From the sequence record SRR31156797_9613: 44,772 nucleotides of DNA. One strand, written 5' to 3'. Below are positions 12,830 through 38,407 of the stretch, in pieces (within the stretch, counting starts at the first letter, position 1; each line of letters begins with the position of its first letter). The notes under the pieces were generated by a model. That model searched no databases. It had not been told where the DNA came from and saw only the letters and a list, made by a program, of their open reading frames with translations. A program made the position numbers and the translations under genes.

Positions 12830-14776
12830 ATGAAAAATATTTTTACCACTACAGTTCTTGTATTGATCATTTCTACCATCACCAACGCCCAATCCTGGGT
12901 TCAGGATGATGCCATATTCAATCCGAGCGGCATCCCGAGTCTGCCGTTCTCACAACCCCGTCTGGTTGATCTTGACGGTGACAATGACTTCGACTTGATA
13001 ATCGGCAGCATTAATGATGCGCCGGTATATTTTGTAAACACAGGTACACCGAACAATCCGTCATTTGAACCTGGCGATGATATCTTTAATATGGTGGATC
13101 CGCTGGATGCCGAATTGGCCGTTTTCACGGATATGGATGCTGACGACGACCTTGATATGGTTACCGGAGGCTATACCGGCTTACACCTTTTCCTGAATAC
13201 GGGTAGTCCGCAAAATCCTGTATTTGAGGAATCAGTAGGCTTTTTTACGGGTGTACAGGCCGGGCAAAATCCTGTTCCCGATTTTGCTGACCTTGACAAC
13301 GATGGCGACGCTGATATGGTGGTCGGATTCAGTGAAAGTGGAATAATTAAAATTTACTCCAATACCGGAACACCAACCGCCGGAGTATTTGATGAAACTT
13401 CGGTTTATGAGGTGGGTGATGTTGGATTGTATGCTTACCCGGTTTTTTGTGATCCGGACCACGATGATGATTTTGACCTGGTGGCAGGCCGGGATGGACA
13501 TGGATTTGTGACATACGAAAATACCGGATCCACTACCTCGGCAAGTTGGGACATCAATGAAATATTTCTGGAAGGTCTGGGAGGGGAAACGTACTGGAAC
13601 TCACCCACCCTGGCCGACCTGAATGGAAATGGTGAATCCGACATAATTTTTGGAACTGCTTCCGGTCCGCTGCAATATTTTGAACAGGATGGCTCGATGG
13701 CCTCACCGGACTGGTCAGAAAACACTTCGCTTTTTGGCGGTGTAATGGATGCGGGTGGTGCAAGTAATCCCTGTTTTTATGATTTTGATGGAGATGGAGA
13801 CCTTGACATGATCAGTGGCTCGCAACTTGGCGATATGAAATATTACCGGAATACCGGCACAATATCCGGCCCTGCATGGGAAGAATACAACAGCTATTTT
13901 ACTTCCATCGACCTTTCGATCTACAGCGATGTTTCTATCGGTGATCTTGATGGCGATAGTCTGCCTGATGCCATTTGCGGAGACCTCAGTGGTAACCTTT
14001 TTTACTATCGAAATACCGGAGAAGGCTTTGAACAGGAAACCGGTTTCCTGCAAGGCGTTTCGCTGGGTGGATGGTCCTCGCCATGCCTTTTTGATATGGA
14101 TGACGACGACGACCTGGACATTGTAGCAGGAGCCGAAAACGGTACCTTACACTATTTTGAAAACCAGGGTACACAGCAGGTAGCAGACTGGATTGAAATC
14201 CCGGATTATTTTGGTGGAATTGATGTTGGATCAAATTGCGTACCTGCTGCAGGCGATGTTGATTTCGACGGTGACCCTGACGTGGTTTGCGGAACACTGT
14301 TCGGTGGCCTGAAATGCTATCTCAACAACAATGGTTCATGGTTTGAAGATACCGAACTATTTTATGGCATTGAAGTAGATCAAAATGCTGCACCAGGTTT
14401 GGGGGATCTGGACAACGATGGGGATCCCGATCTGGCCCTGGGACAATATGACGGTACATTCAGCTACTTCAGGAATCAGCATTTTGTAACAAACATTCAT
14501 CATCAACAGTCGAGGAAATCTATTCACAAGCCTGTTGTTCAGCCCAATCCGGTGGAGGATGAATTTTCGATTCGCATCCAGCTTCAGGATCATTCACAAT
14601 TAAGTTGCCGAATATTAGGAATTGACGGGAAAGTATACGATGAACAACAAACCGAGCTCCCCCAATCCGGAAATTATACCCTCATGTTCACGGCTGAAAA
14701 CTGGCCTGCGGGAATCTATTTTGTTTACCTAATCACCGACATGGGTGCGACATACACTAAGTTTGTAAAAAAATAG
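12830..14776 (+). CDS. FG-GAP/VCBS repeat protein with T9SS type A C-terminal sorting domain
   Basis: Signal peptide (TNA-Q), many DxDxDGDxD Ca-binding repeats with Y.NTG, and C-terminal PNPV...GIYFV...KFVKK. Confidence 0.88.
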   Translation: MKNIFTTTVLVLIISTITNAQSWVQDDAIFNPSGIPSLPFSQPRLVDLDGDNDFDLIIGSINDAPVYFVNTGTPNNPSFEPGDDIFNMVDPLDAELAVFTDMDADDDLDMVTGGYTGLHLFLNTGSPQNPVFEESVGFFTGVQAGQNPVPDFADLDNDGDADMVVGFSESGIIKIYSNTGTPTAGVFDETSVYEVGDVGLYAYPVFCDPDHDDDFDLVAGRDGHGFVTYENTGSTTSASWDINEIFLEGLGGETYWNSPTLADLNGNGESDIIFGTASGPLQYFEQDGSMASPDWSENTSLFGGVMDAGGASNPCFYDFDGDGDLDMISGSQLGDMKYYRNTGTISGPAWEEYNSYFTSIDLSIYSDVSIGDLDGDSLPDAICGDLSGNLFYYRNTGEGFEQETGFLQGVSLGGWSSPCLFDMDDDDDLDIVAGAENGTLHYFENQGTQQVADWIEIPDYFGGIDVGSNCVPAAGDVDFDGDPDVVCGTLFGGLKCYLNNNGSWFEDTELFYGIEVDQNAAPGLGDLDNDGDPDLALGQYDGTFSYFRNQHFVTNIHHQQSRKSIHKPVVQPNPVEDEFSIRIQLQDHSQLSCRILGIDGKVYDEQQTELPQSGNYTLMFTAENWPAGIYFVYLITDMGATYTKFVKK

Positions 14777-15034
14777 TAATAACCTGATTTCGAAATAAGA
14801 GAATAGAAATACATTGCTCTCCAGTTGGTTATATATTCCATTAATTTGAGATAGTGGATAGGTGGAACAATGGAATTGTATAAAAAACCGATCCTTTCCA
14901 TTTCAACTTGAAGCAGTCAGTATGATAAGCCTGCTCAACGCTATCTACTTTGCTGCCTAAAATAAGGTACATATCCGATTTTCTCAATTGCCCGGTTCCA
15001 AAAGCGCGTTTCAAAAAACCACGCTGCAAGACAC

Positions 15035-15079
15035 AAAAAAAAAGCCATATGCTTCACAAAAGGAAACAAATGGCTTTTT
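15035..15079. terminator. Intrinsic terminator, probably bidirectional
   Basis: A9-GCCAT...ATGGC-T5 hairpin between the convergent FG-GAP and Omp28-like genes. Confidence 0.75.
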
Positions 15080-15100
15080 AAAAAATGGAGAATTACAAAT

Positions 15101-17230
15101 CTATTTCACAATAGTCATTTTCTGTGTAAATGATTCTTCACCGGCAGTAACTTTCACGAAATAAACACCATTGTCAAAGTCAGCAGTGTTTATAGTAAAC
15201 TGGTTCAGGCCGGCTCCCTGAGTATTATCTTGAATTTCGCTAACAAGCATTCCAATACTGTTGAAAATGCTTACAGTTACTTCTGAAGAATTATCAATGT
15301 AGTACTCAATGGTTGACTGGCTTGTAACCGGGTTGGGATAAATCCTTATCGGGTTGCTGGCATTCAACTCACCAATACCGGTACATGCATCTACCAAAAT
15401 ATCCTGCCCGGCAAAATTTTCGCAGCCATTACCATCCATGTATGTATAGGTAATGGTATGTGTTCCGGCACCGGCATCTTCGGGATAGAACCATCCGTCT
15501 ACTACACCAGGACCGGAATATACCCCGCCAGCAGGTGTACCTTCAGTCAGTTCAAAACCCGGCCAGTTCAAACACTGATCGCCAATTGCTGCAATTTGAA
15601 CATCAGGAAGATCCCAAACAGTGATGAAATCAGTTGATTCCATGGTGTTGCTATTTGTACCATCGGATACGGTTAAGGTAACATCATACGTGCCTGGTTG
15701 GGCATAATATACAGTTGGGTTTTGTTCATTTGATGTAGCCGGGTCGCCACCTTCAAATGTCCATTCCCATGAATTTACATCGCCATTTGACATATCTGTA
15801 AATTCAACGGTAAGTTCTTCACAACCTTCCGAAACATCACTTGAAAAAGCAGCCTGTACACCGTCAACCAGTGCGGTAAACTGCGATATTTCCCTGTAGG
15901 TAAATTCACCACCAGCGTAGATTGTAACCATGGATCCATTAACAAATGACCGTATAGAATAAAATGTTGTGATCCCGTCGCCGGATGAGTCATAAAGTAT
16001 AAACTGGTGGCATCCCATGATACTATAATATACAGTATCCTTTATAAAGGTGTTTGGTTCGGTAAACGGGCCACCTTCAGCAAGGACTTCGCCATTTGGT
16101 CCCAGAAATTCGTAGGTAGTTTCCTCAGGATTATTGTCTGTTTTCAGGATAAGTACCACATAATCGGTACACTCAAATGTAGCTTCAGTCCCGGTTGTAA
16201 TTTCATTATTGTCCGGATTTTGGTCATCTCCGCCATTTGGATTAGACACGGTAACCACGATTTCATTTTCATCAAGTGATTCGAAAGTAAATGCAGGTAT
16301 CTGGACTTCTTCAACAAAGGGGAAGAGCAATTCACCATTCCAGGTGTGTGTATAAGCAAGTTCGCCATTTATTTCAAAACTGATATCGCATGAGGTCAAT
16401 ACTTCGGCACCTTTATTTTTAATCTCAACAACCGGAGCAATTTCACCATAGCAAAGCCTAAGCGGAATTTCTGATACAGATGCAATCTCAACATCAAGAT
16501 TGTAAGCCGGAATTGCCATCGTTCTGAGTGTTCCCTGGAGGATTTCCTTGGTAGAGTTGTCCTGTACAAAAGCAATTAATTCACAGTTTTCTTCAACCCA
16601 ATACTGTTCGAGTTCAAAATCAAGTTCTATTGTCTGAATATCTCCACCGGAAAAATCAAGCGCAGTTCCATTTTGATTTGGTACCATCAGCCTGTTTGTC
16701 GAATTCACATCCTCTCCCAATCCCCAGTTGATATCCATTTGTGATTCGGTAACAACCAATTGCAATACCAGGTTTGTTCCGCTGTAATTTCCAACTTTTT
16801 CGATAACTGCTGTTGCAGAATAATTTTCACCTGATCCTTGTTCGAAGGAGAGATCAATGGTAAAGTCAGAAGGTACGGCGTTACGTTGGTTAACCTTGGT
16901 AAGGAACAAGGAATAAAGGCTTGAGGAACCTCCACCAACATGGGTTACAATCCCATCAAATTTTGTGGTAGGATAACCGGTAATTCCATAATAGTTATTT
17001 CTGGCATTTGAATACACATTGGCAAGAGAGTCGCCGTTGTGATTCGCAATTACAGCCACATTATGGCCGTTGTCGCGCAGGTCTTCAGCTCCTAGTGCTG
17101 CACCCGGGCAGTAGGGTCACCAGAAACCAGTTGCTTCTTCAACAACAACATGGTCGCGGGCAACCTGCTGTGCCGAAGCAAACTGTACCATGATAAACAT
17201 GGCCAGAACAGTAAGTAGTACGTTTCTCAT
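15101..17230 (-). CDS. Omp28/thioredoxin-fold T9SS cargo protein with in-frame TGA (putative selenocysteine, UPYC), Ig/CARDB-like, PKD and CTD domains; 709 aa
   Basis: ATG 17230 is in frame with the 652-aa ORF and gives MRNVLLTVLAMFIMVQFASA-QQVARDHVVVEEATGFW*PYCPGAA. TGA 17117-17119 is codon 38. PKD motif (WEWTFEGG...PTVYY...YDVTLTV) and IYPNP...GVYFVKV CTD follow. Confidence 0.8.
17074..17110 (-). promoter_or_regulatory. Candidate bacterial SECIS-like hairpin 3' of the in-frame UGA
   Basis: mRNA UGC-C-CGGGU-G-CAGC-ACUAGGA-GCUG-AAG-ACCUG-C-GCG folds by hand into a bulged stem-loop; the loop starts about 20 nt after UGA. Confidence 0.45.
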
Positions 17231-17286
17231 TGTAATAACTTTTAATTGGTGAATAGTTAATCAGTTTAATTGTTTTAATAAGTTTA

Positions 17287-17294
17287 CAAACTTA
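17287..17294 (-). promoter_or_regulatory. -7 promoter box TAAGTTTG for the TGA-containing gene
   Basis: Matches TAnnTTTG, 56 nt upstream of ATG 17230. Confidence 0.6.
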
Positions 17295-17387
17295 AATAAT
17301 TTTTTTAAAAAGTGTTAAATAAAAATGAATTTAGAACGATTCGAAATATTGTCAGGACATATATTCATATTTGAATATCTAAAACCA

Positions 17388-17428
17388 AAAGTCCTGAAAA
17401 ACAACTATATATTTTTTTTCAGGACTTT
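17388..17428 (-). terminator. Hairpin / likely terminator after the CxxC Omp28-like gene
   Basis: AAAGTCCTGAAAAA (17388-17401) and TTTTTCAGGACTTT (17415-17428) form a perfect inverted repeat. Confidence 0.65.
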
Positions 17429-17447
17429 CACTAAATATTAATCGGTC

Positions 17448-19118
17448 TTATTTTACAATTGAAATTTTTCGAACCTGACGTTCATTACCCGTAATAACTT
17501 CGAGGTAGTAAATACCCTCCGGTAACGATGAAGTTTCGAAAGCGAGGCTGTGGGTGCCTGCCGGCATAATCCCATCCTGAACAGATTTTACTTGTTGTCC
17601 GAGTTGATTCAGGAGTTTAATTTCTACATCCGTTTTCCCGATAAGTAAAAATGATACAACTGCAGCATCTTTTGCAGGATTTGGATATATATTCAACCGG
17701 TTATCCCATGTAAGTTCTTCAGTACCAACCGAAACATCGCCTAAAAACATCTGGCTGGCCTCGGCACCAAAATCGCTACCCGTAAGAATTTGGGTGGAAC
17801 CTTTAAACAAACTGAAAAATCCTGGGAGTGAGATCCCATTTCCACCGGCATCATAAATGGTGAAAAGCATGCAGTCGGTCATATCAAATTCCAGTGTTTC
17901 ACTGATAAAACCGCCTGGTGTGGAATAAGGACCACCGGAAAACACAACGTCGCCGGCAGGGTTCACAACTTCCCATGTGGTTTCTTCGGGGTTATCGTCA
18001 AGTTTTATGATCAGGTTCACTTCATCCTGAACAACTATTGAGCGGTCGAAACTGAAAAAGAGCGTATCATTAAGCGGATATTCATCACCACTTCCGTTAA
18101 CATTTGAAAGATAAACTTTCAACTGGTTTTCTTCCATAAGGTCAAACTCAATTTCAGGAAGCAATACGCGCTTCAACTTCAGGTAGTCAACATTTCCTGA
18201 CCAACTCATCATTTGTTCATCTCCACCATTAACGCTGTAATAAATATCTGCCGATGTCAGGTTTTCAGCACCAAAATTGGCAAGCGCAACTTCAGGCTCA
18301 AATGCACTTAAGCATGTTGTTGAAGTCAGGTTGGTGATACCGGCAGGCGAACCATCCACATCAAATAAGGGTTCGAAGGGTTCATCAGAACTAATCCCCG
18401 ACTGGTGCACATCCTTTGTGTTTGAATTCTGTACAAATCCAACTATCGAAAGCTGATCATTATCATATACATTTTCGAGTTCCCAGGTTTGGGCAATGAT
18501 CTTGTATTCACCATCAACCCAGTTCGATTTGAGGGCTGTTCCTGAGGCTGTTGGAAGCATTTTCTTCATGACATCATAAAAATCTGTTTCACCGTTGCCA
18601 CCAGGAGGGCTGCTAAAATCGATCAGTTTTTCTACCACTGCACAATGTCCGCGAAGGAAATTTTCAGTAATGTCCTGAGCAGCCTGAATCCGCATGAAAA
18701 CATAAATGGAATCCTCATCAGCCGAGAGGTAATGATAAATGTCGATTTCATGGAATGGAGACGGATTACTTGCGTAGCTATTCAGCAGGGACTGTGATAC
18801 CTGTCCGGGTTGTGCGTTAAACCCGCCGTCCAATTCAGCACGTGGTACTGAATTGATACCATAATAATCAATCCTGGCTGCATTATCTTCCACATTCTGA
18901 TCGTACATGGGGTCAGTACCTGGCCACCACGAGTGGTACTTAATCACTGATACGATATCTGAATTTGCCTGTAAGAGTGCATCAAAAGCCGGGTTTTGTG
19001 AAGCGCATGGCCCGCATGATGCATTGGTTGCTTCTTCAACCAGTACCCGGCGGTCGGCCTGGGAATAAACAATAGCCACTGAGAATAGGAGCAAAGTAAG
19101 TAATGTAAATTTTCGCAT
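17448..19118 (-). CDS. Omp28/thioredoxin-fold T9SS cargo protein (CGPC motif)
   Basis: Signal peptide (VYS-Q), RRVLVEEATNASCGPC, IKYH..WPG.DPMY, YYGINSVP and IYPNP...GIYYLEV CTD; TATATTTG -7 box at 19167-19174. Confidence 0.88.
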   Translation of the reverse strand: MRKFTLLTLLLFSVAIVYSQADRRVLVEEATNASCGPCASQNPAFDALLQANSDIVSVIKYHSWWPGTDPMYDQNVEDNAARIDYYGINSVPRAELDGGFNAQPGQVSQSLLNSYASNPSPFHEIDIYHYLSADEDSIYVFMRIQAAQDITENFLRGHCAVVEKLIDFSSPPGGNGETDFYDVMKKMLPTASGTALKSNWVDGEYKIIAQTWELENVYDNDQLSIVGFVQNSNTKDVHQSGISSDEPFEPLFDVDGSPAGITNLTSTTCLSAFEPEVALANFGAENLTSADIYYSVNGGDEQMMSWSGNVDYLKLKRVLLPEIEFDLMEENQLKVYLSNVNGSGDEYPLNDTLFFSFDRSIVVQDEVNLIIKLDDNPEETTWEVVNPAGDVVFSGGPYSTPGGFISETLEFDMTDCMLFTIYDAGGNGISLPGFFSLFKGSTQILTGSDFGAEASQMFLGDVSVGTEELTWDNRLNIYPNPAKDAAVVSFLLIGKTDVEIKLLNQLGQQVKSVQDGIMPAGTHSLAFETSSLPEGIYYLEVITGNERQVRKISIVK

Positions 19119-25011: not shown

Positions 25012-25920
25012 ATGTACCACCTGCCCGTTTTATTGAACGAAAGCATCGAAGGGCTCAACATCAGTCCGGACGGCACTTACGTGGATGTGACTTTTGGCGG
25101 AGGCGGACATTCGAAAGCAATCCTTGACAAACTGGAACATGGCAGGCTCATCGCCTTCGATCAGGACAAAGATGCATTGGACAACAAAATCAACGACAGC
25201 AAATTCACATTGGTCAACCATAATTTCAGGTATTTGAAGAATTTTTTGAAATATCACGAAGCTGTTCCGGTAGATGGAATCCTTGCAGATCTGGGTGTGA
25301 GCTCACACCAGTTTGATGAGGGAAGCCGTGGTTTTTCCATGCGTTACGATGGTGATCTGGATATGCGGATGAACACCAGCCAGCAAAAATCAGCAGTTAC
25401 CGTTTTGCAGGAGTATCCGGAAGAGCATCTTCAAAGCATTTTGAAAAATTATGGCGAACTGCCTAATGCCCGGGCAATTAGTAAGGCCATCTGCAACCAA
25501 AGGAAATCGCAGGCCATCAAAACTTTTAAAGACCTGGAAACCACCATTGGCAAATTTGCACAACGCGGAAAAGAGAATAAATTTTTCGCCAAAGTGCTGC
25601 AGGCCCTGCGCATTGAGATCAATGATGAATTGGAAGCCCTGAAAGAGATGTTGCAGCAATCAGCAGAAGTTTTGAAAGAAGGCGGCAGGCTTGTGGTGAT
25701 CAGCTATCATTCGCTGGAAGACAGGCTGGTGAAAAACTTCATCAAAGCCGGAAATTTTGAAGGCAAACAGGAAAAAGACTTTTTCGGGAATCCGCAGCTG
25801 ATCTTCGAACAGGTAAACAGAAAACCAATAACTCCAACTGAGGAGGAGTTAAAAATAAACAACCGCTCCAGAAGTGCGCGGTTAAGAGTTGCAACCAAAT
25901 TAAAACCCCTACAATCATGA
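25012..25920 (+). CDS. rsmH: 16S rRNA m4C1402 methyltransferase RsmH
   Basis: HLPVLL, DVTFGGGGHS, DLGVSSHQFD, QALRIEIN, SYHSLEDR and RSRSARLR motifs. Confidence 0.96.
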   Translation: MYHLPVLLNESIEGLNISPDGTYVDVTFGGGGHSKAILDKLEHGRLIAFDQDKDALDNKINDSKFTLVNHNFRYLKNFLKYHEAVPVDGILADLGVSSHQFDEGSRGFSMRYDGDLDMRMNTSQQKSAVTVLQEYPEEHLQSILKNYGELPNARAISKAICNQRKSQAIKTFKDLETTIGKFAQRGKENKFFAKVLQALRIEINDELEALKEMLQQSAEVLKEGGRLVVISYHSLEDRLVKNFIKAGNFEGKQEKDFFGNPQLIFEQVNRKPITPTEEELKINNRSRSARLRVATKLKPLQS

Positions 25921-26315
25921 CGAAACACACCAACAAAATCAAGTCCAAACCAAAGCCCAAAAGCGAGTCTGAAAAAGCAAGGGCAGGCAAAAAACACAAT
26001 CGTATCCTGCGCAATGCCCACGATGCACTTGATGGCGGCTACCTGCGCAAAGGAAATGTAGCTGCAAAAGTCCGGTTCATCCTGTTCCTGGCAGCTTTAG
26101 GCCTGATCTACATCGCCAACAACCACTTTGCCGAAAAAAAGATTCGCGAGATCGACAGGTTGAGAACAGTAAACAAAGAGCTTAGCTTTGATTACCTGCG
26201 TATGAAAACGCAGCTCAACGAAAAGAAACGCGCCTCTTACCTGGCAGATAAACTCAAACCATATGGCATAAAACCATCCGTTGAACCTCCGCAAAAATTG
26301 CTTGTAAACCCCTAA
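25917..26315 (+). CDS. ftsL: FtsL-like cell division protein (Bacteroidota type)
   Basis: Single TM followed by YIANNH.AEK and a coiled coil; lies between rsmH and ftsI. Confidence 0.8.
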   Translation: MTKHTNKIKSKPKPKSESEKARAGKKHNRILRNAHDALDGGYLRKGNVAAKVRFILFLAALGLIYIANNHFAEKKIREIDRLRTVNKELSFDYLRMKTQLNEKKRASYLADKLKPYGIKPSVEPPQKLLVNP

Positions 26316-26327
26316 ATCAAAAATGCC

Positions 26328-28388
26328 ATGAGCAAGACCAGGAAAAAATCCAAAACCACGGGGCCCGGCAAAGAAAGCATGGTAAGAACCTATCTGGTTT
26401 TTATTATCCTGTTTTTGTTCGGAGTCGGAATTGTAATCAAAGCAGCCCATATCCAGATTTTCGAAGGCCCGGTTTTAAACGAGCGTGCCGAAAAAATGGA
26501 ATACAAATACAGCGATACAGAAGCGATGCGTGGCAACATTTATGCTGCCGATGGGAATATTCTGGCCACCTCCATCCCCATTTTCGAAATTCGTTTCGAT
26601 GCGGCCTCTCCACACATTCCCAATAAATTGTTCAACGACAGTGTTTCGCATTTGGCATATTATTTATCAAAGATGTTTGGCGACCGCACAAACTGGGGCT
26701 ACAAACAATACCTCATCAATGCCCGGAAAAAGGGGAACCGCTATCTCGCCATCCAAAAAAATGTAACCTACGATCAACTTTCAGAACTGAAAGATTTCCC
26801 CATTTTTAACAAGGGGAAAATCAAGGGCGGGCTGATCGCAGAACGCCAGATATCACGCGAATATCCTTTTGGCATTTTGGCAAAACGAACAATCGGGTAT
26901 TCCAGAGTCAATGAAAAAGATACGATTTTGGTGGGCCTTGAAGGCTATTTTGATGACTATCTCCGCGGCACGCCCGGCAGACAGCTCAGGCAACGCATGG
27001 CCAACAGAGCCTGGCGACCGGTTTACAGCGAAAATGATATCGAGCCCGAAAACGGGCAGGATGTGATCACCACCATCGATACCTACTTGCAGGATGTTGC
27101 TGAAAATGCGCTGATGAAACAGCTGAAAAGTCACAATGCCGAAAAAGGCACGGTGGTTTTGATGGAAGTTAAAACCGGCGAGATCAAGGCCATTGCTAAT
27201 CTTGTCCACAATGAAAAAGACGATACTTACACTGAAACCTACAACCTGGCTGTAGGTGAGGCCTTCGAGCCGGGCTCGACTTTTAAGATTGCATCGCTGA
27301 TGATTGCCATGGAAGATGGCACGTTGGGCAAAATCGATTCGGTGGAAATTGGTGATGGCTGGACCATGTACCATGGTAAAACCATGAAGGATTCCCACCT
27401 GATTGATGCTGATGGCTGGCTGACACCTGAGGAATGCCTGGTATACAGCTCCAATGTAGGTGTTTCACGAATCATTTATGACCATTACACAGGCCGTGAG
27501 TGGGATTTTTACAACGGCGTCAAAGCGATGTTCCCGCTTGAACCAACAGGCATCGAAATCCATGGCGAGGCGACACCAGGACTAAAAAATCCCGACAACA
27601 GGCACTGGTCAAAAGTAACGCTGCCCTGGATGTCGATTGGTTACGAAATGACAATTACGCCGCTGCAAATGCTTACGTTTTACAATGCCATTGCCAACAA
27701 TGGGACCATGGTGAAGCCGCACCTGGTAAAGTACATAGGCGAGGCAGGCAGGATGACAAAGGAATTTGAACCCGAAATCATCAAAAAATCCATTTGCTCC
27801 GAATCGACGCTTGCGCTGGCCAGACATTACCTTGAGGGTGTTGTGGATTACGGAACCGCAACCAATATCAAAAATGAAATCTACAAAATTGCCGGAAAAA
27901 CAGGTACTGCCAAGGTAAACGAAAATGGTAAGTACATTCCAAAGTACAATGCTTCGTTTGCCGGATATTTTCCGGCCTCCGATCCAAAATATTCATGCAT
28001 CGTGGTAATTTACCGGCCCAACGACGGACATTATTATGCTACTCAGGTTGCAGCGCCGGTTTTTAAGGAAATTGCAGATATCGTGTATGCCACCGAAATT
28101 GACATTCACCCGGAAAACCCACCGGAAATTCATGAAATCATCGCAGAAAATGCAAACACCCCAAAGATAGATTTTGACGCTGACAGCACTCTATCATTCG
28201 ATCAGTTTATGACCAAAAAAACCATCCCCAACGTAAACGGTATGGGTGCCAAAGACGCCATTTATCTCTTAGAGAATATGGGTCTGGTTGTTCGTGTAAA
28301 TGGACGTGGACTGGTGAAAAAACAATCGCTTGAGCCGGGCTATACATTCCGCAAAGGCGATCATATTTATTTGAACCTGGAAATATAA
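26328..28388 (+). CDS. ftsI: Class B penicillin-binding protein FtsI with PASTA domain
   Basis: RGNIYAADG, EPGSTFK (SxxK), SSN, KTGTA and a C-terminal PASTA domain. Confidence 0.93.
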   Translation: MSKTRKKSKTTGPGKESMVRTYLVFIILFLFGVGIVIKAAHIQIFEGPVLNERAEKMEYKYSDTEAMRGNIYAADGNILATSIPIFEIRFDAASPHIPNKLFNDSVSHLAYYLSKMFGDRTNWGYKQYLINARKKGNRYLAIQKNVTYDQLSELKDFPIFNKGKIKGGLIAERQISREYPFGILAKRTIGYSRVNEKDTILVGLEGYFDDYLRGTPGRQLRQRMANRAWRPVYSENDIEPENGQDVITTIDTYLQDVAENALMKQLKSHNAEKGTVVLMEVKTGEIKAIANLVHNEKDDTYTETYNLAVGEAFEPGSTFKIASLMIAMEDGTLGKIDSVEIGDGWTMYHGKTMKDSHLIDADGWLTPEECLVYSSNVGVSRIIYDHYTGREWDFYNGVKAMFPLEPTGIEIHGEATPGLKNPDNRHWSKVTLPWMSIGYEMTITPLQMLTFYNAIANNGTMVKPHLVKYIGEAGRMTKEFEPEIIKKSICSESTLALARHYLEGVVDYGTATNIKNEIYKIAGKTGTAKVNENGKYIPKYNASFAGYFPASDPKYSCIVVIYRPNDGHYYATQVAAPVFKEIADIVYATEIDIHPENPPEIHEIIAENANTPKIDFDADSTLSFDQFMTKKTIPNVNGMGAKDAIYLLENMGLVVRVNGRGLVKKQSLEPGYTFRKGDHIYLNLEI

Positions 28389-28392
28389 ACAG

Positions 28393-29850
28393 TTGAAAAA
28401 CCTTACTGACATATTAGCGCATGTGAATGTCCTGAAATCCTCAGGTGATACAGCTGTTGAGATCAATAAAATCACCTTCGATTCCAGGGATGTTGAGCCG
28501 GGCGACCTTTTTGTAGCTGTAAAAGGCACCAGGGTAGACGGCCATAAATTCATCAGCACGGCACTGAAAAATGGCGCCACAGCTGTGGTTTGCGAAACAT
28601 TACCATCGGAATTGCCAGAAGAGGCCATTTTCATCCAGGTGGAGAATTCTGCTAAAACACTGGGGCTGATGGCATCGGCCTATTACGACCATCCTTCTCA
28701 TGACATGAAGGTGATCGGAATTACAGGAACAAACGGAAAAACCACAACCGTCTTCCTGCTATACCAGCTTTACAAATTGCTGGGATACAAAGCCGGATTA
28801 CTTTCGACCATCGAAAATCGCATTGGCGATACTGTCATCAAATCTACACATACAACCGCTGATGCAGTTCAGATTAACAAAAACCTCGCTGCAATGGCTG
28901 ATGCGGGTTGCGACTACTGCTTCATGGAAATCAGCTCGCATGCCATTGAGCAGGAACGTACCGCCGGACTGAAAATTCATGGTGCTATTTTTTCAAATAT
29001 TACCCATGACCACCTGGATTATCACGGCACTTTCGACAATTACATCAAAGCCAAAAAGAAGCTTTTTGATGAGCTGCCGAATGATGCTTTCGCGCTGGTG
29101 AATACTGATGATAAACATGCAGGCGTCATGCTTCAAAATACCACGGCCAAAAAAGCGACTTACAGCCTGAAAAATGTTTCGGACTTTAAAGGAAGGATTT
29201 TGGAAAATCTTTTTGTAGGATTGCATTTACACATTAATCGTACCGATGTGTGGACGCGCCTTGTAGGAAGTTTTAATGCTTACAACATCATGGCCGTTTA
29301 TGCTGCCGCCTGCCTCGAAGGACAAAAACCGGAAGAGGTACTCCTCAACATCAGCAGGCTGGAACCCGTAGAAGGCCGGTTTGAGGTGGTACAATCCACA
29401 GCCGAGATTGTGGCCATCGTGGATTATGCACACACGCCCGATGCACTCAAAAATGTGCTGGTAACGATTAATAATGTGCGCTCCGGGAGCGAACACCTGT
29501 TGACGATCATTGGTGCAGGTGGAAATCGTGACAGGGAAAAACGTCCAAAGTTGGCTGAAATAGCCTGCAACTTTAGCGAGCGTGTAATTCTTACAGCCGA
29601 CAACCCCAGGGATGAAGACCCGGAGGAGATCATCAAAGAGATGGACTCAGGACTGAACAACGATTGCCGCAGAAAAACAGTAAAAATTACAGATCGCCGG
29701 GAAGCCATAAAAACAGCGTGCATAATCTCCGTAAAAGGAGACATCATTTTGGTGGCCGGAAAAGGCCACGAAACTTACCAGGAGGTAAAAGGCGTGCGGC
29801 ACCATTTTGACGACCGGGAAATATTAAAAGCGTGTTTAAATAATTTATAA
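28393..29850 (+). CDS. murE: UDP-N-acetylmuramoyl-L-alanyl-D-glutamate--DAP ligase
   Basis: GITGTNGKTT, MEISSH, DYAHTPDAL, DNPR and AGKGHE motifs; TTG start. Confidence 0.95.
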   Translation: MKNLTDILAHVNVLKSSGDTAVEINKITFDSRDVEPGDLFVAVKGTRVDGHKFISTALKNGATAVVCETLPSELPEEAIFIQVENSAKTLGLMASAYYDHPSHDMKVIGITGTNGKTTTVFLLYQLYKLLGYKAGLLSTIENRIGDTVIKSTHTTADAVQINKNLAAMADAGCDYCFMEISSHAIEQERTAGLKIHGAIFSNITHDHLDYHGTFDNYIKAKKKLFDELPNDAFALVNTDDKHAGVMLQNTTAKKATYSLKNVSDFKGRILENLFVGLHLHINRTDVWTRLVGSFNAYNIMAVYAAACLEGQKPEEVLLNISRLEPVEGRFEVVQSTAEIVAIVDYAHTPDALKNVLVTINNVRSGSEHLLTIIGAGGNRDREKRPKLAEIACNFSERVILTADNPRDEDPEEIIKEMDSGLNNDCRRKTVKITDRREAIKTACIISVKGDIILVAGKGHETYQEVKGVRHHFDDREILKACLNNL

Positions 29851-29870
29851 ACTGTTAATCAACAGGACAG

Positions 29871-31124
29871 ATGCTATATTACCTGTTTGCATATCTGGAA
29901 CAAAACTTTGACCTGCCGGGCGCAGGGATGTTCGAATATATTTCATTCCGTGCCGGGATGGCTGTGATCACTTCGCTGATCATTTCCTTGCTTTTTGGAA
30001 AACGGCTTATCAACTACCTCAAGAAAAAACAGGTTGGCGAAAGCATCCGCGATCTGGGGCTGGATGGCCAGATGGAAAAGCAGGGTACGCCTACCATGGG
30101 CGGACTGATCATTCTCGGCGCGATCCTCATCCCTACGCTACTTTTTGCCAAACTGGAAAACATCTACGTAATCATTATCCTGATCACTACGATCTGGTTA
30201 GGATTTATCGGGTTCATCGACGACTATATTAAAGTGTTCAGAAAAGACAAGAAAGGCCTTGCCGGAAAATTTAAAATGCTGGGCCAGATTGTGCTGGGAA
30301 TCTTCGTGGGGTTGATGATGTATTTAAGTCCGGATATCGTGATCCGTGAAAAGCTTACCAATCAATCCGTGATTGATCAGGGCGAGAATTTTGATGCTAC
30401 CGAAAGAGATAATGCCCTTTTGCTCTTTAATCCTGAACCGGTTAAATCCACCAAATCAACCATTCCATTTGTCAAGAACAACGAATTTAACTATTCCATT
30501 TTCCTGGCCTGGCTGGGTGGCAACTACGAAAAATGGACTTTTCTGGTGTTCATTCCGGCAGTTATTCTGATCATCACCGCGGTATCCAACGGCGCAAATT
30601 TAACGGATGGGATGGACGGGCTGGCAACAGGAACATCGGCCATCATTGGGACAACACTGGCCATATTTGCTTACGTTTCAGGCAACATCTTTTTTGCCAA
30701 CTATCTCAACATCATGTACATTCCCAATACGGGCGAGCTGGTGATTTTTATCAGTGCCTTTGTGGGGGCCTGCATCGGATTCCTTTGGTACAACTCATTT
30801 CCGGCACAGGTTTTTATGGGCGATACCGGATCACTTGCCATTGGAGGTATTATTGCCGTATTCGCAATCATGCTCCGCAAGGAACTTCTTATTCCAATCC
30901 TATGCGGCATTTTTCTGGTGGAAAACCTTTCGGTGGTGATGCAGGTAAGCTATTTCAAATACACACGCAAAAAATATGGCGAAGGACGGCGCATTTTCAA
31001 AATGTCGCCACTCCATCACCACTATCAGATAAAGGGCTATCCCGAACCAAAAATTGTACTGCGGTTTTTCATTGTCGGTATCATGCTGGCAGTATTTACG
31101 GTGATCACACTAAAGATCAGGTAA
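29871..31124 (+). CDS. mraY: Phospho-N-acetylmuramoyl-pentapeptide transferase
   Basis: [30 protein letters not shown] and PLHHHY motifs. Confidence 0.96.
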
Positions 31125-31137
31125 GGAGGGATGCGGA

Positions 31138-32499
31138 TTGGCCAAAAGAATTGCCATACTTGGAGGAGGTGAAAGCGGAACCGGGGCGGCGCTGCTGGCA
31201 AAAAAGAAAGGTTTTGAGGTTTTTATTTCGGATAGCGGAAAAATAAAACAACAGTATAAAAAAGTTCTTTCACAGTTTGATATCGACTTCGAAGAAGGCC
31301 CCCACACAAAGAGCAGGATTCTGAAAGCAAATGAGGTTATCAAAAGCCCCGGGATTCCGGGAACGGCAACTTTGGTTCAGCAAATAAAATCAAGAGGCAT
31401 TCCGGTGATTTCGGAGATTGAATTTGCAGGAAGGCATACGAATGCCAAAAAGATATGTATCACGGGGTCGAACGGAAAAACCACAACCACCCTGCTTACC
31501 TATCATATCCTTAAAAATGCCGGGCTGGATGTGGGCCTTGGAGGCAATGTGGGCAAGAGCATGGCATGGCTGCTTAGCGAGCGGGATTATGAATATCTGG
31601 TTCTTGAGCTCAGCAGTTTCCAGTTGGACGATATGTTTGAACTCAAGGCAGAGATTGCGATGCTGCTGAACATTACGCCCGACCATCTGGACAGGTATGA
31701 CAATGATTTTGAAAAATATGCAGATGCCAAATTCAGGATTACCCAAAATCAGGGGCCGGAAGATTTCCTGGTTTTTGATTGGGACGATGAAACCATCCGC
31801 AGGAAATTAAAGGCATCAGGAGGTTTGGCAAAACAAATACCCTTTTCGCTTGAAGACTCAGGATTTAGTGAGGGGGCATTCTTTGAAGAAGATAAAAAGG
31901 ACTACGAACAAAGCAAATTGATCATCAACATAAACCGTGAAAAAATGGTAATGACTTTAAAGGAAATGGCACTTAGCGGCAGGCACAATGCTTACAATTC
32001 GATGGCAGCAGCCATTGGCGCAAGGCTGATCGACATCCGGAAGGACCGCATCAAGGAAAGCCTGGCGGATTTCCAGGGTGTGGAGCACAGGCTGGAGTAT
32101 GTGGCATCGATCCGTGGCATCGAATTCATCAACGATTCCAAGGCCACCAACATCAACTCAACCTGGTATGCACTTGAAAATGCCGGGCGTCCGGTAATCT
32201 GGATTTGTGGCGGCCAGGACAAAGGAAATGATTACGAGGCGCTGTTGGAGATGGTTGATGAAAAAGTAAAAGCCATCATCTGCCTTGGGGTGGATAATTC
32301 CCGGATTATTGAGGCCTTTTCCAATTCATGCCCTGCCATTTATGAGACTCAAAGCATGCAGGCAGCAGTAAAGATGTCGTACAAGCTGGGCGAGAAAGGC
32401 GACACCGTTTTACTTTCACCGGCATGTGCCAGCTTCGACCTGTTTAAAAATTATGAGGATCGTGGTAATCAGTTTAAATATAATGTTGTAAACCTCTAA
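31138..32499 (+). CDS. murD: UDP-N-acetylmuramoyl-L-alanine--D-glutamate ligase
   Basis: ITGSNGKTTT, ELSSFQL, DHLDRY, NDSKATN and LLSPACASFD motifs; TTG start. Confidence 0.96.
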   Translation: MAKRIAILGGGESGTGAALLAKKKGFEVFISDSGKIKQQYKKVLSQFDIDFEEGPHTKSRILKANEVIKSPGIPGTATLVQQIKSRGIPVISEIEFAGRHTNAKKICITGSNGKTTTTLLTYHILKNAGLDVGLGGNVGKSMAWLLSERDYEYLVLELSSFQLDDMFELKAEIAMLLNITPDHLDRYDNDFEKYADAKFRITQNQGPEDFLVFDWDDETIRRKLKASGGLAKQIPFSLEDSGFSEGAFFEEDKKDYEQSKLIININREKMVMTLKEMALSGRHNAYNSMAAAIGARLIDIRKDRIKESLADFQGVEHRLEYVASIRGIEFINDSKATNINSTWYALENAGRPVIWICGGQDKGNDYEALLEMVDEKVKAIICLGVDNSRIIEAFSNSCPAIYETQSMQAAVKMSYKLGEKGDTVLLSPACASFDLFKNYEDRGNQFKYNVVNL

Positions 32500-32596
32500 A
32501 AACGACTGCAATTATAAAGATGATTAAACAACCAAAACATATGGAATTTATTTTTGATTCATTCATCTTTTCATTAACCCTTAAAACATCAACAAA

Positions 32597-33766
32597 ATGA
32601 TTTCCAATTACATCAAAGGCGACAAAGTGATCTGGTTGCTGGTGGTTATCCTGTCGGCAATTTCCCTGCTGGCCATCTACAGCTCCACCAGTTCGCTTGC
32701 ATGGCGCGAACAGGGCGGAAACACAGAGTATTACCTTATCCGCCAGTTTGTGATCGTGATGCTGGGATTGATCATCATGTTTTCAATCCACCGCATCAAT
32801 TACATCTATTTTTCAAGAGCGGCGCAGTTCCTTTTTTACGTTTCAATTGCGCTGTTGATCTTTACCCTGTTCTTCGGCCCGGTTATCAACGGTGCCCGAC
32901 GCTTTCTCATCATCAACATTCCCGGGTTGGGGATGCTTACATTCCAAACATCAGATATGGCCAAGCTGGCTTTGATGATGTACCTTGCCCGTTTCCTGGC
33001 CAAAAACCAGGATGAGATTCGCGACTTCAAAAAAGGATTCGTAAAGATAATTATACCCATTTTGGTTATCTGCGGATTCATCCTGCCTGCCAACTTCTCA
33101 ACGGCAGCAATGCTTTTTGTAGGCAGCCTGGGAATTTTATACATCGGCAGGGCAAACATCAAACACATTGGCGCACTTATCGGCATCGGGATTCTTGGAT
33201 TCGGGATGTTGCTGGGCATTGCCAAATACAAACCTGAATTGCTGCCGCGTGCCACCACTTGGTATAACCGTGCCGTATCGCATTTTAACGAAGACTCCGA
33301 GCCGGCATACCAGGTGAATATTTCAAAGATGGCCATCGCCGGAGGAGGTATCATCGGCAAAATGCCTGGCAACAGCACCCAACGGAATTTCCTGCCCCAC
33401 TCCTATTCTGATTTTGTATATGCGATTATCATCGAAGAATATGGACTAATTGGCGGAGGCGCAGTGGTTTTCATCTTCATCATGCTATTGTTCCGGTCGA
33501 TTAAAATAGCGCGATTGTGCGAAAAGAAATTCGGCAGCTTTCTGGTCATTGGCATCAGCTTCCTGATGGTATTCCAGGCCATGATCAACATGGGTGTTGC
33601 CGTAAACCTGTTGCCTGTGACCGGACAAACATTACCGTTTATTTCCATGGGTGGAACCTCTTTCTGGTTTTCCTGCGCCGGCCTGGGTATCATCCTGAGT
33701 GTAAGCCGGTCGGTTGAAATGAAACAACCTGCTAAAAATGAAAATTTAAATTATGCCACAGCATAA
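32597..33766 (+). CDS. ftsW: SEDS peptidoglycan polymerase FtsW
   Basis: Polytopic; NGARR, LPHSYSDF..AII.EEYG and PVTGQTLPFISMGG motifs. Confidence 0.94.
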   Translation: MISNYIKGDKVIWLLVVILSAISLLAIYSSTSSLAWREQGGNTEYYLIRQFVIVMLGLIIMFSIHRINYIYFSRAAQFLFYVSIALLIFTLFFGPVINGARRFLIINIPGLGMLTFQTSDMAKLALMMYLARFLAKNQDEIRDFKKGFVKIIIPILVICGFILPANFSTAAMLFVGSLGILYIGRANIKHIGALIGIGILGFGMLLGIAKYKPELLPRATTWYNRAVSHFNEDSEPAYQVNISKMAIAGGGIIGKMPGNSTQRNFLPHSYSDFVYAIIIEEYGLIGGGAVVFIFIMLLFRSIKIARLCEKKFGSFLVIGISFLMVFQAMINMGVAVNLLPVTGQTLPFISMGGTSFWFSCAGLGIILSVSRSVEMKQPAKNENLNYATA

Positions 33767-34889
33767 ACTGAAAATACTGATCTCCGGTGGCGGAACGGGC
33801 GGCCATGTGTTCCCGGCCATAGCCATCGCCGAAGCCCTCAAACGCATCGACGAAACCATCGACATTTTGTTTGTTGGCGCCAAGGGGCGTATGGAGATGG
33901 AGAAGGTGCCCATGGCCGGCTTCCCCATCACCGGGTTATGGATCAGTGGTTTTCAGCGGAGCTTAAGCATGAAAAACCTGTTATTTCCCTTTAAATTGGC
34001 TTACAGCCTGATGAAGGCCGGCAGCATTGTTCGCAGGTTCAAACCTGCTGCTGTGGTTGGCGTTGGCGGCTATGCCAGCGGGCCAACTGTTAAGATGGCC
34101 GTAAGAAGAAAAGTTCCGGCATTGTTGCAGGAGCAAAACTCATTTCCGGGTATCACCAATAAGTTGCTGGCAAAAGATGCACGTAAAATTTGTGTGGCCT
34201 ATCCCGGAATGGAAAAGTATTTCCCGAAAGAAAAACTCATTGTCACCGGAAATCCTATCAGGCAGCAGGTGGTGGAAATTGAAGGCAAGCGCGAATATGC
34301 TTTCGAATATTTTGAGTTGGACAAAAACAAGCAGGTGATCCTTGTCGTGGGCGGAAGCCAGGGAGCACGCTCCATAAACGAGGCGATTGATGAAAGCCTG
34401 ATGCTTTTTGCCATGAACAACATTCAGGTAATCTGGCAAACAGGCAAATTGTACGTTGAACAGGCACAAAAATCAATTTTGGCTAACCTCAGCGGCAACA
34501 ACAAAAAACTGGTCAGGGTGAAAGCGTTTATCACACGTATGGATCTGGCTTATGCCGCTGCTGACATGGTGATTTCACGCGCCGGTGCCATTGCCATCTC
34601 AGAGTTGAGTGTAGTTGGCAAGCCCTGCATTTTTGTCCCGCTGCCAACGGCGGCAGAAGATCACCAGACCCATAACGCCGAAGCCCTGGTAAAAGAAAAT
34701 GCAGCCATTCACCTGAAAAACAGTGACGCCAAAGAGAAGCTGGGAAAAATGGCCGTTGGACTGGCGAAAAATGAAGATTTACGAGAGACCTTCTCAAAAA
34801 ACATACAGAAGATGGCTGTGAAAAATTCAGCCGACCGGATTGCAGAAGAAATCCTGGAAATGATAAAACCTGTAGAAGTGGATGAATAA
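33753..34889 (+). CDS. murG: Lipid II GlcNAc transferase MurG
   Basis: GGGTGGHVFP, EQNS.PG, GGSQGA, SRAGA and HQ..NA motifs. Confidence 0.96.
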   Translation: MPQHKLKILISGGGTGGHVFPAIAIAEALKRIDETIDILFVGAKGRMEMEKVPMAGFPITGLWISGFQRSLSMKNLLFPFKLAYSLMKAGSIVRRFKPAAVVGVGGYASGPTVKMAVRRKVPALLQEQNSFPGITNKLLAKDARKICVAYPGMEKYFPKEKLIVTGNPIRQQVVEIEGKREYAFEYFELDKNKQVILVVGGSQGARSINEAIDESLMLFAMNNIQVIWQTGKLYVEQAQKSILANLSGNNKKLVRVKAFITRMDLAYAAADMVISRAGAIAISELSVVGKPCIFVPLPTAAEDHQTHNAEALVKENAAIHLKNSDAKEKLGKMAVGLAKNEDLRETFSKNIQKMAVKNSADRIAEEILEMIKPVEVDE

Positions 34890-36276
34890 GTATACACACA
34901 TATTCATGATTGGGATTGGCGGCATTGGCATGTCGGCACTGGCCAGGTATTTTGCCCTGAATGGCAAAACCGTCGCCGGTTACGACCGCACACCATCGAT
35001 GATCACTTCACAACTCCAGAATGAGGGCATCCGTATCACCTTTGAAGATCAACCGGTTTTTGAAGATGAAAAATTCGGGGATCCACAAAAAACACTGGTG
35101 ATCTTCACCCCTGCCGTAAAACAGGACAATGGTTTCATGACCTGGTTCACTCGAAATCGTTTTACAATGATGAAACGTGCTGAGGTGCTTGGTGAAATAT
35201 CCAAAACATTCAAAACCATTGCTGTGGCCGGAACCCATGGCAAAACCAGTGTTTCGTGTATGATCGCACACATCCTGAAAGGCTCAAATATTGGCTGCAA
35301 TGCCATCCTCGGTGGTATTCCCAAAAATTACCTGACCAACTTCATTTTTGATGCGGAGTCAGCATTTTTGGTGACAGAAGCCGATGAGTTTGACAAATCA
35401 TTTTTGAAGTTGCAACCGGATTTTGTAACCATTACCTCTGCTGATGCCGACCACCTGGACATATATGGAAACCGGGAATCGCTTGTTGAATCCTTTGAGG
35501 CTTTTACAAATGGGATGAAACCGGATGGTGTTTTATTGCTAAAACAAAATATCGGTCTCAAAACTGACAACCTCAAAGTTCAAAATATATTCAGCTATAC
35601 GCTGGATGATGGGCATGCCGATGTTTATGCTGACAACATGGTCACTTCAGGAGAAAAAATGCAATTCGACCTCGTAACCCCGAATGGCAGGATGGAGCAA
35701 TTGGAGATGAAGGCACTCGGACTGGTAAATATCGAAAATGCTGTTGCAGCAACGTTCATGGCCTTGCAGGCTGGAACTACTGAAATTGAGATCCGGGAAG
35801 GCTTAAAAACTTTTGAAGGCGTTCATCGTCGCCTCGACCGGCAGTTTATTTCGGAGGATACAATTTATATCGATGATTATGCACATCATCCGGAAGAGAT
35901 CAATGCCCTGGTGAGGTCAGTTCGGGCACTTTATCCGGATAAGTCATTAACCGGTATTTTCCAGCCGCACCTCTACTCCCGCACCAGGGATTTTGCAGAT
36001 GGATTTGCGGAAAGTTTATCAGAATTGGATGAGGTGATACTGCTGGACATTTATCCTGCCCGCGAAAAACCTATCGCAGGGGTAACATCAAAAATGATTT
36101 TTGACAGGATCAGCAACAGCAACAAAACACTTTTATCAAAGGATAACCTGATGGATTTCTTAAGCGCAAAGAATCCTGAAATCCTTTTGACAATTGGTGC
36201 CGGAGACATCGACAGGCTGGTAGCTCCGATCCGGGAAATGTTGCAAAACAGGTTTAAAAAGGAGAATGTAACATGA
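34882..36276 (+). CDS. murC: UDP-N-acetylmuramate--L-alanine ligase
   Basis: GIGGIGMSALA, AGTHGKT, EADE, DDYAHHP and FQPHLYSRT motifs. Confidence 0.96.
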   Translation: MNKYTHIFMIGIGGIGMSALARYFALNGKTVAGYDRTPSMITSQLQNEGIRITFEDQPVFEDEKFGDPQKTLVIFTPAVKQDNGFMTWFTRNRFTMMKRAEVLGEISKTFKTIAVAGTHGKTSVSCMIAHILKGSNIGCNAILGGIPKNYLTNFIFDAESAFLVTEADEFDKSFLKLQPDFVTITSADADHLDIYGNRESLVESFEAFTNGMKPDGVLLLKQNIGLKTDNLKVQNIFSYTLDDGHADVYADNMVTSGEKMQFDLVTPNGRMEQLEMKALGLVNIENAVAATFMALQAGTTEIEIREGLKTFEGVHRRLDRQFISEDTIYIDDYAHHPEEINALVRSVRALYPDKSLTGIFQPHLYSRTRDFADGFAESLSELDEVILLDIYPAREKPIAGVTSKMIFDRISNSNKTLLSKDNLMDFLSAKNPEILLTIGAGDIDRLVAPIREMLQNRFKKENVT

Positions 36277-37055
36277 AAAAAATATTTCAAATAACCATCT
36301 GGCTGGTCATCTTTACAGGGATCATTTTCCTGTTGAGCTTTGCGGTGACTGAACACAAGCAAGCGACCTGTACATCGGTAAACATCAGTTTTACCGATCA
36401 GTTGCAAAAAAGTTTTATCGATGAAAAAGCCATTGAGGAACTGATTACAAAAGATTTCGACACACTGGCCGGCAGTCTGCTCGACAGCATCAACACCAGT
36501 GCGATTGCCACCATGCTCAAGACCAATCCATATATCCGGGAAGCAGCGGTTTTTGAATCCGTTTCCGGTAATATCGAAATTGAAGTCGAACGGGAAACTC
36601 CGCTGGTGCGAATCATTAACAAAGACTATGAAAATTTTTATCTCGCTGTCAGTGGTGCGGTTTTACCACTCAGTAGTAATTACACTCCACATGTACTGGT
36701 TGCCTCCGGCGATCTGCGTGTAACTTACAAATCCATAAAAGACAGCACTTTTTCGTACACCACTGAAGTCGAAACAGCTCAAAATCCGTTAGCATCAGCA
36801 CATTATTTGGCCGCTGCCATCTCAAACCATTCGCATTTAAACAAAAGTATCGAACAGATTTATTTCAATAAAAACGGAAACGCAGAGCTCGTTCCGGCAG
36901 ATGGCGATCATATTATCGTGCTGGGTGATGTGATTGACCTTTCGAAAAAATTCAGCAACCTGATGGCATTTTACCAGGCCGGTAAGCCTTCCGTTCGTGA
37001 TGGTTATCAGGTTGTAAATCTCAAATACACCAACCAGGTAGTTTGTAAAAAATAA
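36273..37055 (+). CDS. ftsQ: Cell division protein FtsQ/DivIB
   Basis: N-terminal TM, POTRA-like region, Bacteroidota-type C-terminus Y..VNLKY.NQVVC; lies between murC and ftsA. Confidence 0.85.
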   Translation: MKKIFQITIWLVIFTGIIFLLSFAVTEHKQATCTSVNISFTDQLQKSFIDEKAIEELITKDFDTLAGSLLDSINTSAIATMLKTNPYIREAAVFESVSGNIEIEVERETPLVRIINKDYENFYLAVSGAVLPLSSNYTPHVLVASGDLRVTYKSIKDSTFSYTTEVETAQNPLASAHYLAAAISNHSHLNKSIEQIYFNKNGNAELVPADGDHIIVLGDVIDLSKKFSNLMAFYQAGKPSVRDGYQVVNLKYTNQVVCKK

Positions 37056-37060
37056 AGCAT

Positions 37061-38350: not shown

Positions 38351-38407
38351 AAATCAGAACAATTGAAGCAAATAATTGAAAAATAATTAAATATAAGGAG
38401 TAAAACT

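Follow-up and report, generated by a model that had tools for sequence, protein, structure and literature searches.

Two described systems stand closest to the gene treated here, a reading frame with an internal UGA on the minus strand (15101..17230) of a 44,772-nucleotide stretch of DNA from sequence record SRR31156797_9613, which in its full length is called the window below. The first is GOS_C, a bacterial selenoprotein family predicted from ocean metagenomes by Zhang and Gladyshev in 2008 (PMC2398784), whose description comprises a thioredoxin (Trx)-like fold, a UxxC motif (with U for selenocysteine, Sec), a hairpin resembling a selenocysteine insertion sequence (SECIS), as well as 74 Sec and 312 Cys sequences in the GOS (Global Ocean Sampling) data. 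In Table 1 of a 2026 review (PMC13188914), this family appears under the name "Hypothetical protein GOS_C", its motif being given as UxxC, as one of 119 families, and it corresponds to the NCBIfam model NF045500. The second system is HBP35 of P. gingivalis, a surface-attached protein of the Cys type that carries a signal peptide and a C-terminal domain (CTD) of the T9SS (type IX secretion system). According to its published characterization (PMC2907840), the CTD is required for transport to the outer membrane and the protein undergoes modification on the cell surface. The same report describes reduction of insulin by HBP35 that is faster than by E. coli thioredoxin and abolished in the C48S/C51S double mutant, as well as hemin binding via residues 135-344 (M135-P344). 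Beyond these two, the above table contains several exported Trx-fold selenoproteins (DsbA-like, DsbG-like, thiol:disulfide interchange protein and UGC-type TlpA) in addition to an FCYXU-type TonB-dependent receptor selenoprotein (PMC13188914). Hence, selenoproteins outside the cytoplasm have precedent.

The gene in the window very probably encodes a genuine selenoprotein, in which UGA codon 38 (17117..17119, minus strand) is read as selenocysteine. It is complete, running from an ATG at 17228-17230 to a TAG at 15101-15103 with 709 sense codons (TGA translated as U), and the TGA at codon 38 is its sole in-frame stop. Translation table 11 yields a 652-residue, GTG-started piece (15101-17059). 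As an earlier note on this DNA had proposed, re-translation of the frame extends this open reading frame (ORF) through the single TGA by another 57 codons, up to the ATG at 17230. The added N-terminal part reads MRNVLLTVLAMFIMVQFASA|QQ...VVVEEATGFW-U-PYC, and the residues around U38 run ...ATGFW-U-PYCPGAALGAEDLR (string VVVEEATGFW-U-PYCPGAA), with the redox motif U-P-Y-C (residues 38-41, 17108..17119) starting at U38. In the alignment, this segment matches VLVEEATNAS-C-GPC of the neighbouring paralogue column for column, which likewise agrees with the earlier note.

A protein search with residues 1-245 as query gave 491 matches, the best 120 of which were used for comparison. Among these 120, the full-length homologues P0004 and P0005 (65% and 63% identity) have Cys at the Sec column. 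Another 28, including NCBI entries, cover just 75-81% of the query. The 25 of them that were aligned all start at residues 49-60, shortly after the TGA, and thus correspond to the product expected of gene callers that meet an in-frame stop. NCBI records of the homologues bear the name "T9SS type A sorting domain-containing protein". For the JGI homologue P0009, the record has W in the Sec/Cys column (GFWWGYC); in this case, the gene caller may have used a code in which TGA stands for Trp.

At the homologous codon, TGA is found in 25 loci, i.e. in the window, in its closest orthologue (L001), in 8 metagenome loci (L030, L033, L036, L037, L038, L039, L094 and L064) and in 15 further genome loci, compared to TGC or TGT in about 45 homologues. 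The closest orthologue is 79% identical and stems from a contig of a metagenome-assembled genome (MAG) titled uncultured Lentimicrobiaceae bacterium, where it has the same neighbour gene and its TGA at the homologous codon. The layout of the orthologues matches that of the window gene. From the related bacterial family, 23 species genomes were analyzed, with the nearest relative being the one titled Lentimicrobiaceae. A homologue of the domain is present in 21 of these genomes, with 52 matches in all. Exactly one TGA occurs in 16 of the 52 matches, distributed over 10 genomes, and in each of the 16 it is located at the UxxC codon. TGA forms are encountered among sequences down to ~30% identity and, judged from these sequence comparisons, the 25-locus pattern is far beyond chance. 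A regular-expression match in L134 (+ strand, 757) was off-frame and was rejected as not being a family member.

The distribution of the two forms was followed in a quick maximum-likelihood tree (IQ-TREE) of 69 non-identical N-terminal domains, for which six identical rows had been removed beforehand, L110, which duplicates L001, had been excluded and L162 had been dropped by a length/motif filter. The tree comprises 24 Sec rows and 45 rows with Cys (TGC/TGT) aligned to the UGA. Therein, the window protein belongs to an all-Sec clade of 14 rows (support 99). A second all-Sec clade consists of 7 rows (support 100), and three further Sec forms stand singly among Cys forms. Parsimony requires 5 changes between Sec and Cys, only 1 of which is forced by well-supported branches. 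In the 14-member clade, the ratio of nonsynonymous to synonymous differences (pN/pS) amounts to 0.265 for the 17 codons upstream of the TGA and to 0.271 for the 60 codons downstream. This equality argues for translation of the two parts into a single protein. The TGA is invariant in this clade even though pS reaches 0.63. Homologues that retain the TGA under purifying selection on either side, which the earlier note had looked to as support for recoding, thus do exist among the 25 loci.

Bacterial SECIS elements are stem-loops just past the UGA with a small, G-containing apical loop (PMC1088965). A SECIS-like hairpin with these properties begins 8 nt past the UGA of the window gene (17075..17108, minus strand; upper stem 17086-17100) and has a 7-nt apical loop, ACUAGGA (17090-17096), with an invariant GG. 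The segment is constrained at the RNA level, as seen from 17 loci of the window's type. Among these, the 7-nt loop follows the consensus A[C/U/A]NNGGA, the Gly codon in the loop is GGA in 17/17 and the Ala codon before it is always GCA, whereas both codons are variable in Cys forms. For a 12-pair structure, pairing is realized in 83.3% of cells, compared to 21.6-45.6% in control registers with the 3' side slid by 1-3 columns. For pair 33:45 (alignment numbering), 11 sequences show A-U and 6 show U-A, with no sequence unpaired and both positions being third bases of Ala codons. The Cys forms L135 and L137 encode the same AALGA peptide, yet the pair is absent from them. The upper stem has all four of its pairs in 7/9 and 9/9 Sec loci versus 3/29 and 1/20 Cys loci. 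The decoding mechanism is ordinary, consisting of a SECIS hairpin and SelB: the ribosome would read UGA codon 38 as Sec, guided by this bacterial-type SECIS within the coding sequence together with SelB and tRNA-Sec.

The same bacterial family contains a second Sec subfamily (L156-L162 and L064, e.g. L158:363 and, on the minus strand, L160). In this subfamily, the Trx domain is internal (...EIATGTW-U-GYCPYA...) and the hairpin differs, with the stem AUGCAG...CUGCAU and a compensatory pair of its own. Some genomes harbor both subfamilies together, and up to three TGA forms are found per genome.

The machinery for selenocysteine is present in the relatives. In the 23 family genomes, matches over cut-off were obtained for selA (21/23), selB (21/23) and tRNA-Sec (19/23), frequently in the gene order tRNA-Sec, selA, selB. 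In 4/4 loci examined, ARAGORN identified a tRNA-SeC with anticodon TCA. In the genome that carries the closest orthologue (G001), the matches above the respective cut-offs comprise selA, selB and two copies of selD. Both selD copies are located on one contig (G001:C88, 2659-3585 and 6871-7788), and one of them is contained in a 737-residue open frame, pointing to a fusion protein. The search for Sec machinery suggested in the earlier note thus yielded matches in related genomes. That note had also regarded Sec as rare in the phylum. This holds for a phylum sample, in which selA was found in 2/401 genomes, one of them G001 itself (1/400 outside G001), but not within the related family. Taken together with the TGA conservation, the Cys homologues, the equal selection on both sides and the hairpin, these genes support the main inference of the note, in which the UGA takes the place of the first Cys in a Trx CxxC motif and stands for selenocysteine in a T9SS cargo protein. 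The machinery for type IX secretion was found as well: SprA (T9SS translocon) and PorU (sortase) exceeded the cut-offs in 5/5 carrier genomes tested. An SprA-like fragment (G016:C93:20491-21693, 346.6 bits) contains one in-frame TGA within the matched part and could be a recoded or a broken gene.

For the N-terminal region of the protein, a Trx fold is predicted. An AlphaFold2 (AF2) model of residues 21-240, based on 32 aligned sequences, has a mean predicted local distance difference test score (pLDDT) of 96.1. It displays the Trx topology beta-alpha-beta-alpha-beta-beta-alpha, with (in model numbering) a strand at 7-14, the motif at 18-21 and a helix at 21-33. C18 and C21 of the model are invariant in alignment A4, the profile of which matches thioredoxin 1fo5 (E 7.7e-5). 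The UxxC motif hence resides where the first helix of the Trx fold begins, and a beta-sandwich follows. UxxC in a Trx-like fold is also part of the description of NF045500. The Trx-fold domain spans residues 22-118 (16877..17167) and the Omp28-like beta-sandwich residues 121-237 (16520..16870). For the latter, the Pfam family Omp28 (PF11551) matches residues 77-233 with 35.8 bits, barely above the cut-off of 34.9. In a Foldseek search against the PDB, the top match is P. gingivalis HBP35 (5y1a, E 1.5e-13, TM score 0.81), followed by 2axo and then by the Omp28 domain 2r2c (E 2.4e-5). Profile alignment places HBP35 residues 35-56 (...EWCGYCPGG...) onto the UxxC motif, which pairs U38 with C48 and C41 with C51 of HBP35. 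Both proteins share the two-domain fold, with the active sites W-C-G-Y-C-P-G (HBP35) and W-U-P-Y-C-P-G (selenoprotein), and in both, a signal peptide (a candidate in the case of the selenoprotein) and a T9SS CTD frame the chain. In contrast to the selenoprotein, HBP35 has Cys instead of Sec, comprises 344 residues and lacks the PKD and middle domains, and the identity between the two is 19%.

The product would thus be a 709-residue precursor that passes across the inner membrane by means of its signal peptide and that is then directed by the C-terminal sorting domain to the T9SS, leading to cell-surface display or release. The N-terminal Trx fold and the Omp28-like beta-sandwich would represent the same two-domain module as in HBP35. 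With Sec presumably placed as the first, attacking residue of CxxC, the protein would serve as an extracytoplasmic selenol/thiol-disulfide oxidoreductase for a putative substrate.

Alternatively, the UGA could be read through without selenium, with Trp, Cys or Gly being delivered by a near-cognate tRNA or a suppressor, which would give a full-length, selenium-free protein. Selenium insertion and expression of the gene are inferences, the JGI homologue mentioned above is recorded with W at the Sec column, and one genome (G018) has two TGA forms, while selA, selB and tRNA-Sec were not found in its draft assembly, which is either an incomplete MAG or assembly gap or a real exception. Yet, this scenario appears improbable in view of the Sec machinery in 19-21/23 family genomes, the conserved hairpin with a compensatory pair after the UGA and the position of the UGA at the classic Sec/Cys site of CxxC. 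Moreover, no tRNA gene was found in the window, and TGA terminates 5/25 window ORFs of >=250 residues, including 199-1461, rsmH and ftsZ. The earlier note was hence correct in treating TGA as an ordinary stop elsewhere in the window, and a genome-wide code change is excluded. Even less credible is that the TGA is a true stop and that the gene is either a pseudogene or expressed solely as the 652-residue piece. This form is the one given by gene callers, and the 28 short homologues are consistent with N-terminal truncation. However, its T9SS CTD presupposes an export step, for which this form is missing the signal peptide. In addition, the 37 codons upstream of the TGA are in frame and experience the same selection as those downstream, and the persistence of the TGA over the 25 loci, despite divergence to ~30% identity, is not expected of a decaying gene. 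Finally, the stretch is carried by one DNA run alone, possibly the source of the window itself, which could speak for a sequencing or assembly error that turned TGC or TGT into TGA. Given that 24 further loci, from independent genome and metagenome assemblies, share this TGA, the chance of such an error is minute. Among the alternatives raised in the earlier note, sequencing error, a recent nonsense mutation and genome-wide recoding are thereby excluded or made unlikely.

The preferred reading of a selenoprotein decoded via SECIS and SelB nonetheless has to be weighed against a number of findings that count against it. By energy, the window hairpin is ordinary (z -0.62), with 49/200 shuffles folding as well, and the mean minimum free energy (MFE) is -14.3 for Sec loci versus -11.5 for Cys loci. 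Compensatory change is seen in only 1/12 pairs, and the proposed basal pair 25:56 is formed in just 4/17 sequences. None of 500 shuffles matched the observed pairing or covariation score, a control that overstates significance because the sequences are related. Rfam gave no match at gathering thresholds across the window and none at E up to 10 for the hairpin region (16950-17250). The Sec and T9SS machinery was seen in the genomes of relatives only. In G001, tRNA-Sec had no match, the best candidates being ordinary tRNAs (tRNA-Ser, tRNA-Leu and similar), and no tRNA is located on its selA/selB and selD loci. As selA begins 270 nt from a contig end, the tRNA-Sec gene of G001 may be cut off. No match for tRNA-Sec was obtained in G017 either, which, like G001 and G018, is a draft assembly of unstated completeness, and the above exception of G018 belongs here as well. 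No RNA run is among the listed sequencing runs that hold the stretch. With respect to function, the putative redox activity is assigned by homology to HBP35 at the low identity given above, and no redox partner is found among the window neighbours of the gene.

Regarding its affiliation, the gene is a new, so far unannotated member of the Omp28/HBP35-like Trx superfamily, of which one Sec form had been known before. The best NCBIfam match of the N-terminal domain is NF045500, "Omp28-related selenoprotein", with residues 24-235 aligned to profile positions 37-265. The score of 69.8 bits falls below the membership cut-off of 200, which is also reached in 0/23 family genomes (best 107 bits) and in 0/9 diverse loci. 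True NF045500 members were found neither at E <= 1e-30 in the 401 sampled phylum genomes nor at E <= 1e-35 among 401 genomes from the order to which G424 belongs, and neither G424 nor G425 contains one. The clade of the window protein is therefore outside the NF045500 model. Like GOS_C/NF045500 as described, the window protein, as a predicted selenoprotein of bacteria, combines a Trx-like fold with UxxC, many Cys homologues and a SECIS-like hairpin, a likeness that is based on profile match and description and that may extend to the Sec column. The Omp28 outer-membrane lipoprotein family (PF11551, NF033782; PDB 2r2c) shares the beta-sandwich domain with the selenoprotein, which scores 37.5 bits against NF033782 (cut-off 150). 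It differs by its lipoprotein anchor, as opposed to the candidate type I signal peptide and CTD of the selenoprotein. The exported selenoproteins from Table 1 of PMC13188914 resemble the window protein by Sec in a UxxC-type redox motif and by their extracytoplasmic location, which is predicted in the case of the window protein; they belong to other families, and none is described in that table with a T9SS sorting domain.

The novelty that the earlier note had attached to the gene was overstated, since the related NF045500, i.e. GOS_C, has been predicted from ocean metagenomes since 2008 and HBP35, a Cys-type relative, is a characterized T9SS cargo. What may be new is that the T9SS would bring such a protein to the surface, as well as its expansion in a single family. 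A literature search yielded no paper tying selenoproteins to T9SS or Omp28 and, by title and abstract, nothing relevant on selenocysteine in Lentimicrobium or on surface selenoproteins of Bacteroidota. In their main text (supplements aside), PMC13188914, PMC12013277 and PMC13326102 contain none of the terms Omp28, T9SS and Bacteroid.

At the N-terminus of the protein, a candidate signal peptide (residues 1-20, 17171..17230), identified by eye from the sequence, comprises a hydrophobic stretch that ends in ASA with Gln at +1, and the full-length AF2 model places a helix at residues 2-17. After the hydrophobic stretch, QQV/NQV is retained in 14/14 clade members. Further downstream, the full-length model (pLDDT 84.6) shows a chain of beta domains that links the Trx module and the CTD. 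It includes two all-beta middle domains (residues 245-453, 15872..16498; block pLDDT mostly 81-95), for which Pfam returned no match. A PKD domain follows (residues 460-538, 15617..15853), with 52.7 bits for PF18911 and 39.4 bits for PF00801, both above the cut-offs. The T9SS type A C-terminal sorting domain occupies residues 630-707 (15110..15343) and is recognized by PF18962 (Por_Secre_tail, 56.4 bits, cut-off 27) and by TIGR04183 (49.4 bits, cut-off 23). Directly 3' of the stop codon, a terminator-like hairpin followed by a U run is located on the minus strand (15035..15079; MFE -20.1 kcal/mol, z -5.67), and 0/200 shuffles fold equally well. A scan for sigma-70 promoters and terminators, which is uninformative for Bacteroidota, overlooked this hairpin. 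Upstream of the gene, TAAGTTTG (17287..17294, minus strand) is a possible promoter box 57 nt from the ATG, which we take to correspond to the -7 consensus of Bacteroidota.

Adjacent to the selenoprotein gene, the minus strand encodes the Cys-type paralogue (17448..19118), which was assigned from sequence, Pfam and alignment and contains the motif CGPC and a T9SS CTD. It is 28-30% identical to the selenoprotein in the N-terminal domain, and the pairing of the two genes is conserved in L001 and L038. Together with an FG-GAP repeat protein gene (12830-14776, plus strand), they constitute three adjacent genes with a T9SS CTD (12830-19118). The other neighbouring genes look like unrelated housekeeping genes. 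Among the remaining parts of the window, 25012-40009 is a cell-division (dcw-type) region with rsmH (25012-25920) and ftsZ (38408-40009), both ending in TGA.

The finding bears on annotation, as dozens of public records contain the protein cut at the UGA and therefore lack the signal peptide and the active site, and as the existing NCBI selenoprotein model (NF045500) does not catch the clade of the window protein. It also joins two fields that were unconnected in the searched literature, i.e. selenocysteine and T9SS cargo, and sets the related family apart from its phylum as a user of Sec. In anaerobic Bacteroidota, the gene offers an opportunity to test for extracellular redox chemistry based on selenium. 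As a tentative proposal, for which the odds are somewhat less than even, the proteins could be the first bacterial selenoproteins that reach the cell surface via type IX secretion. They would then represent a lineage-specific HBP35-like expansion with up to three members per genome and two subfamilies with different SECIS hairpins, which may help to explain why this family has retained selenocysteine.

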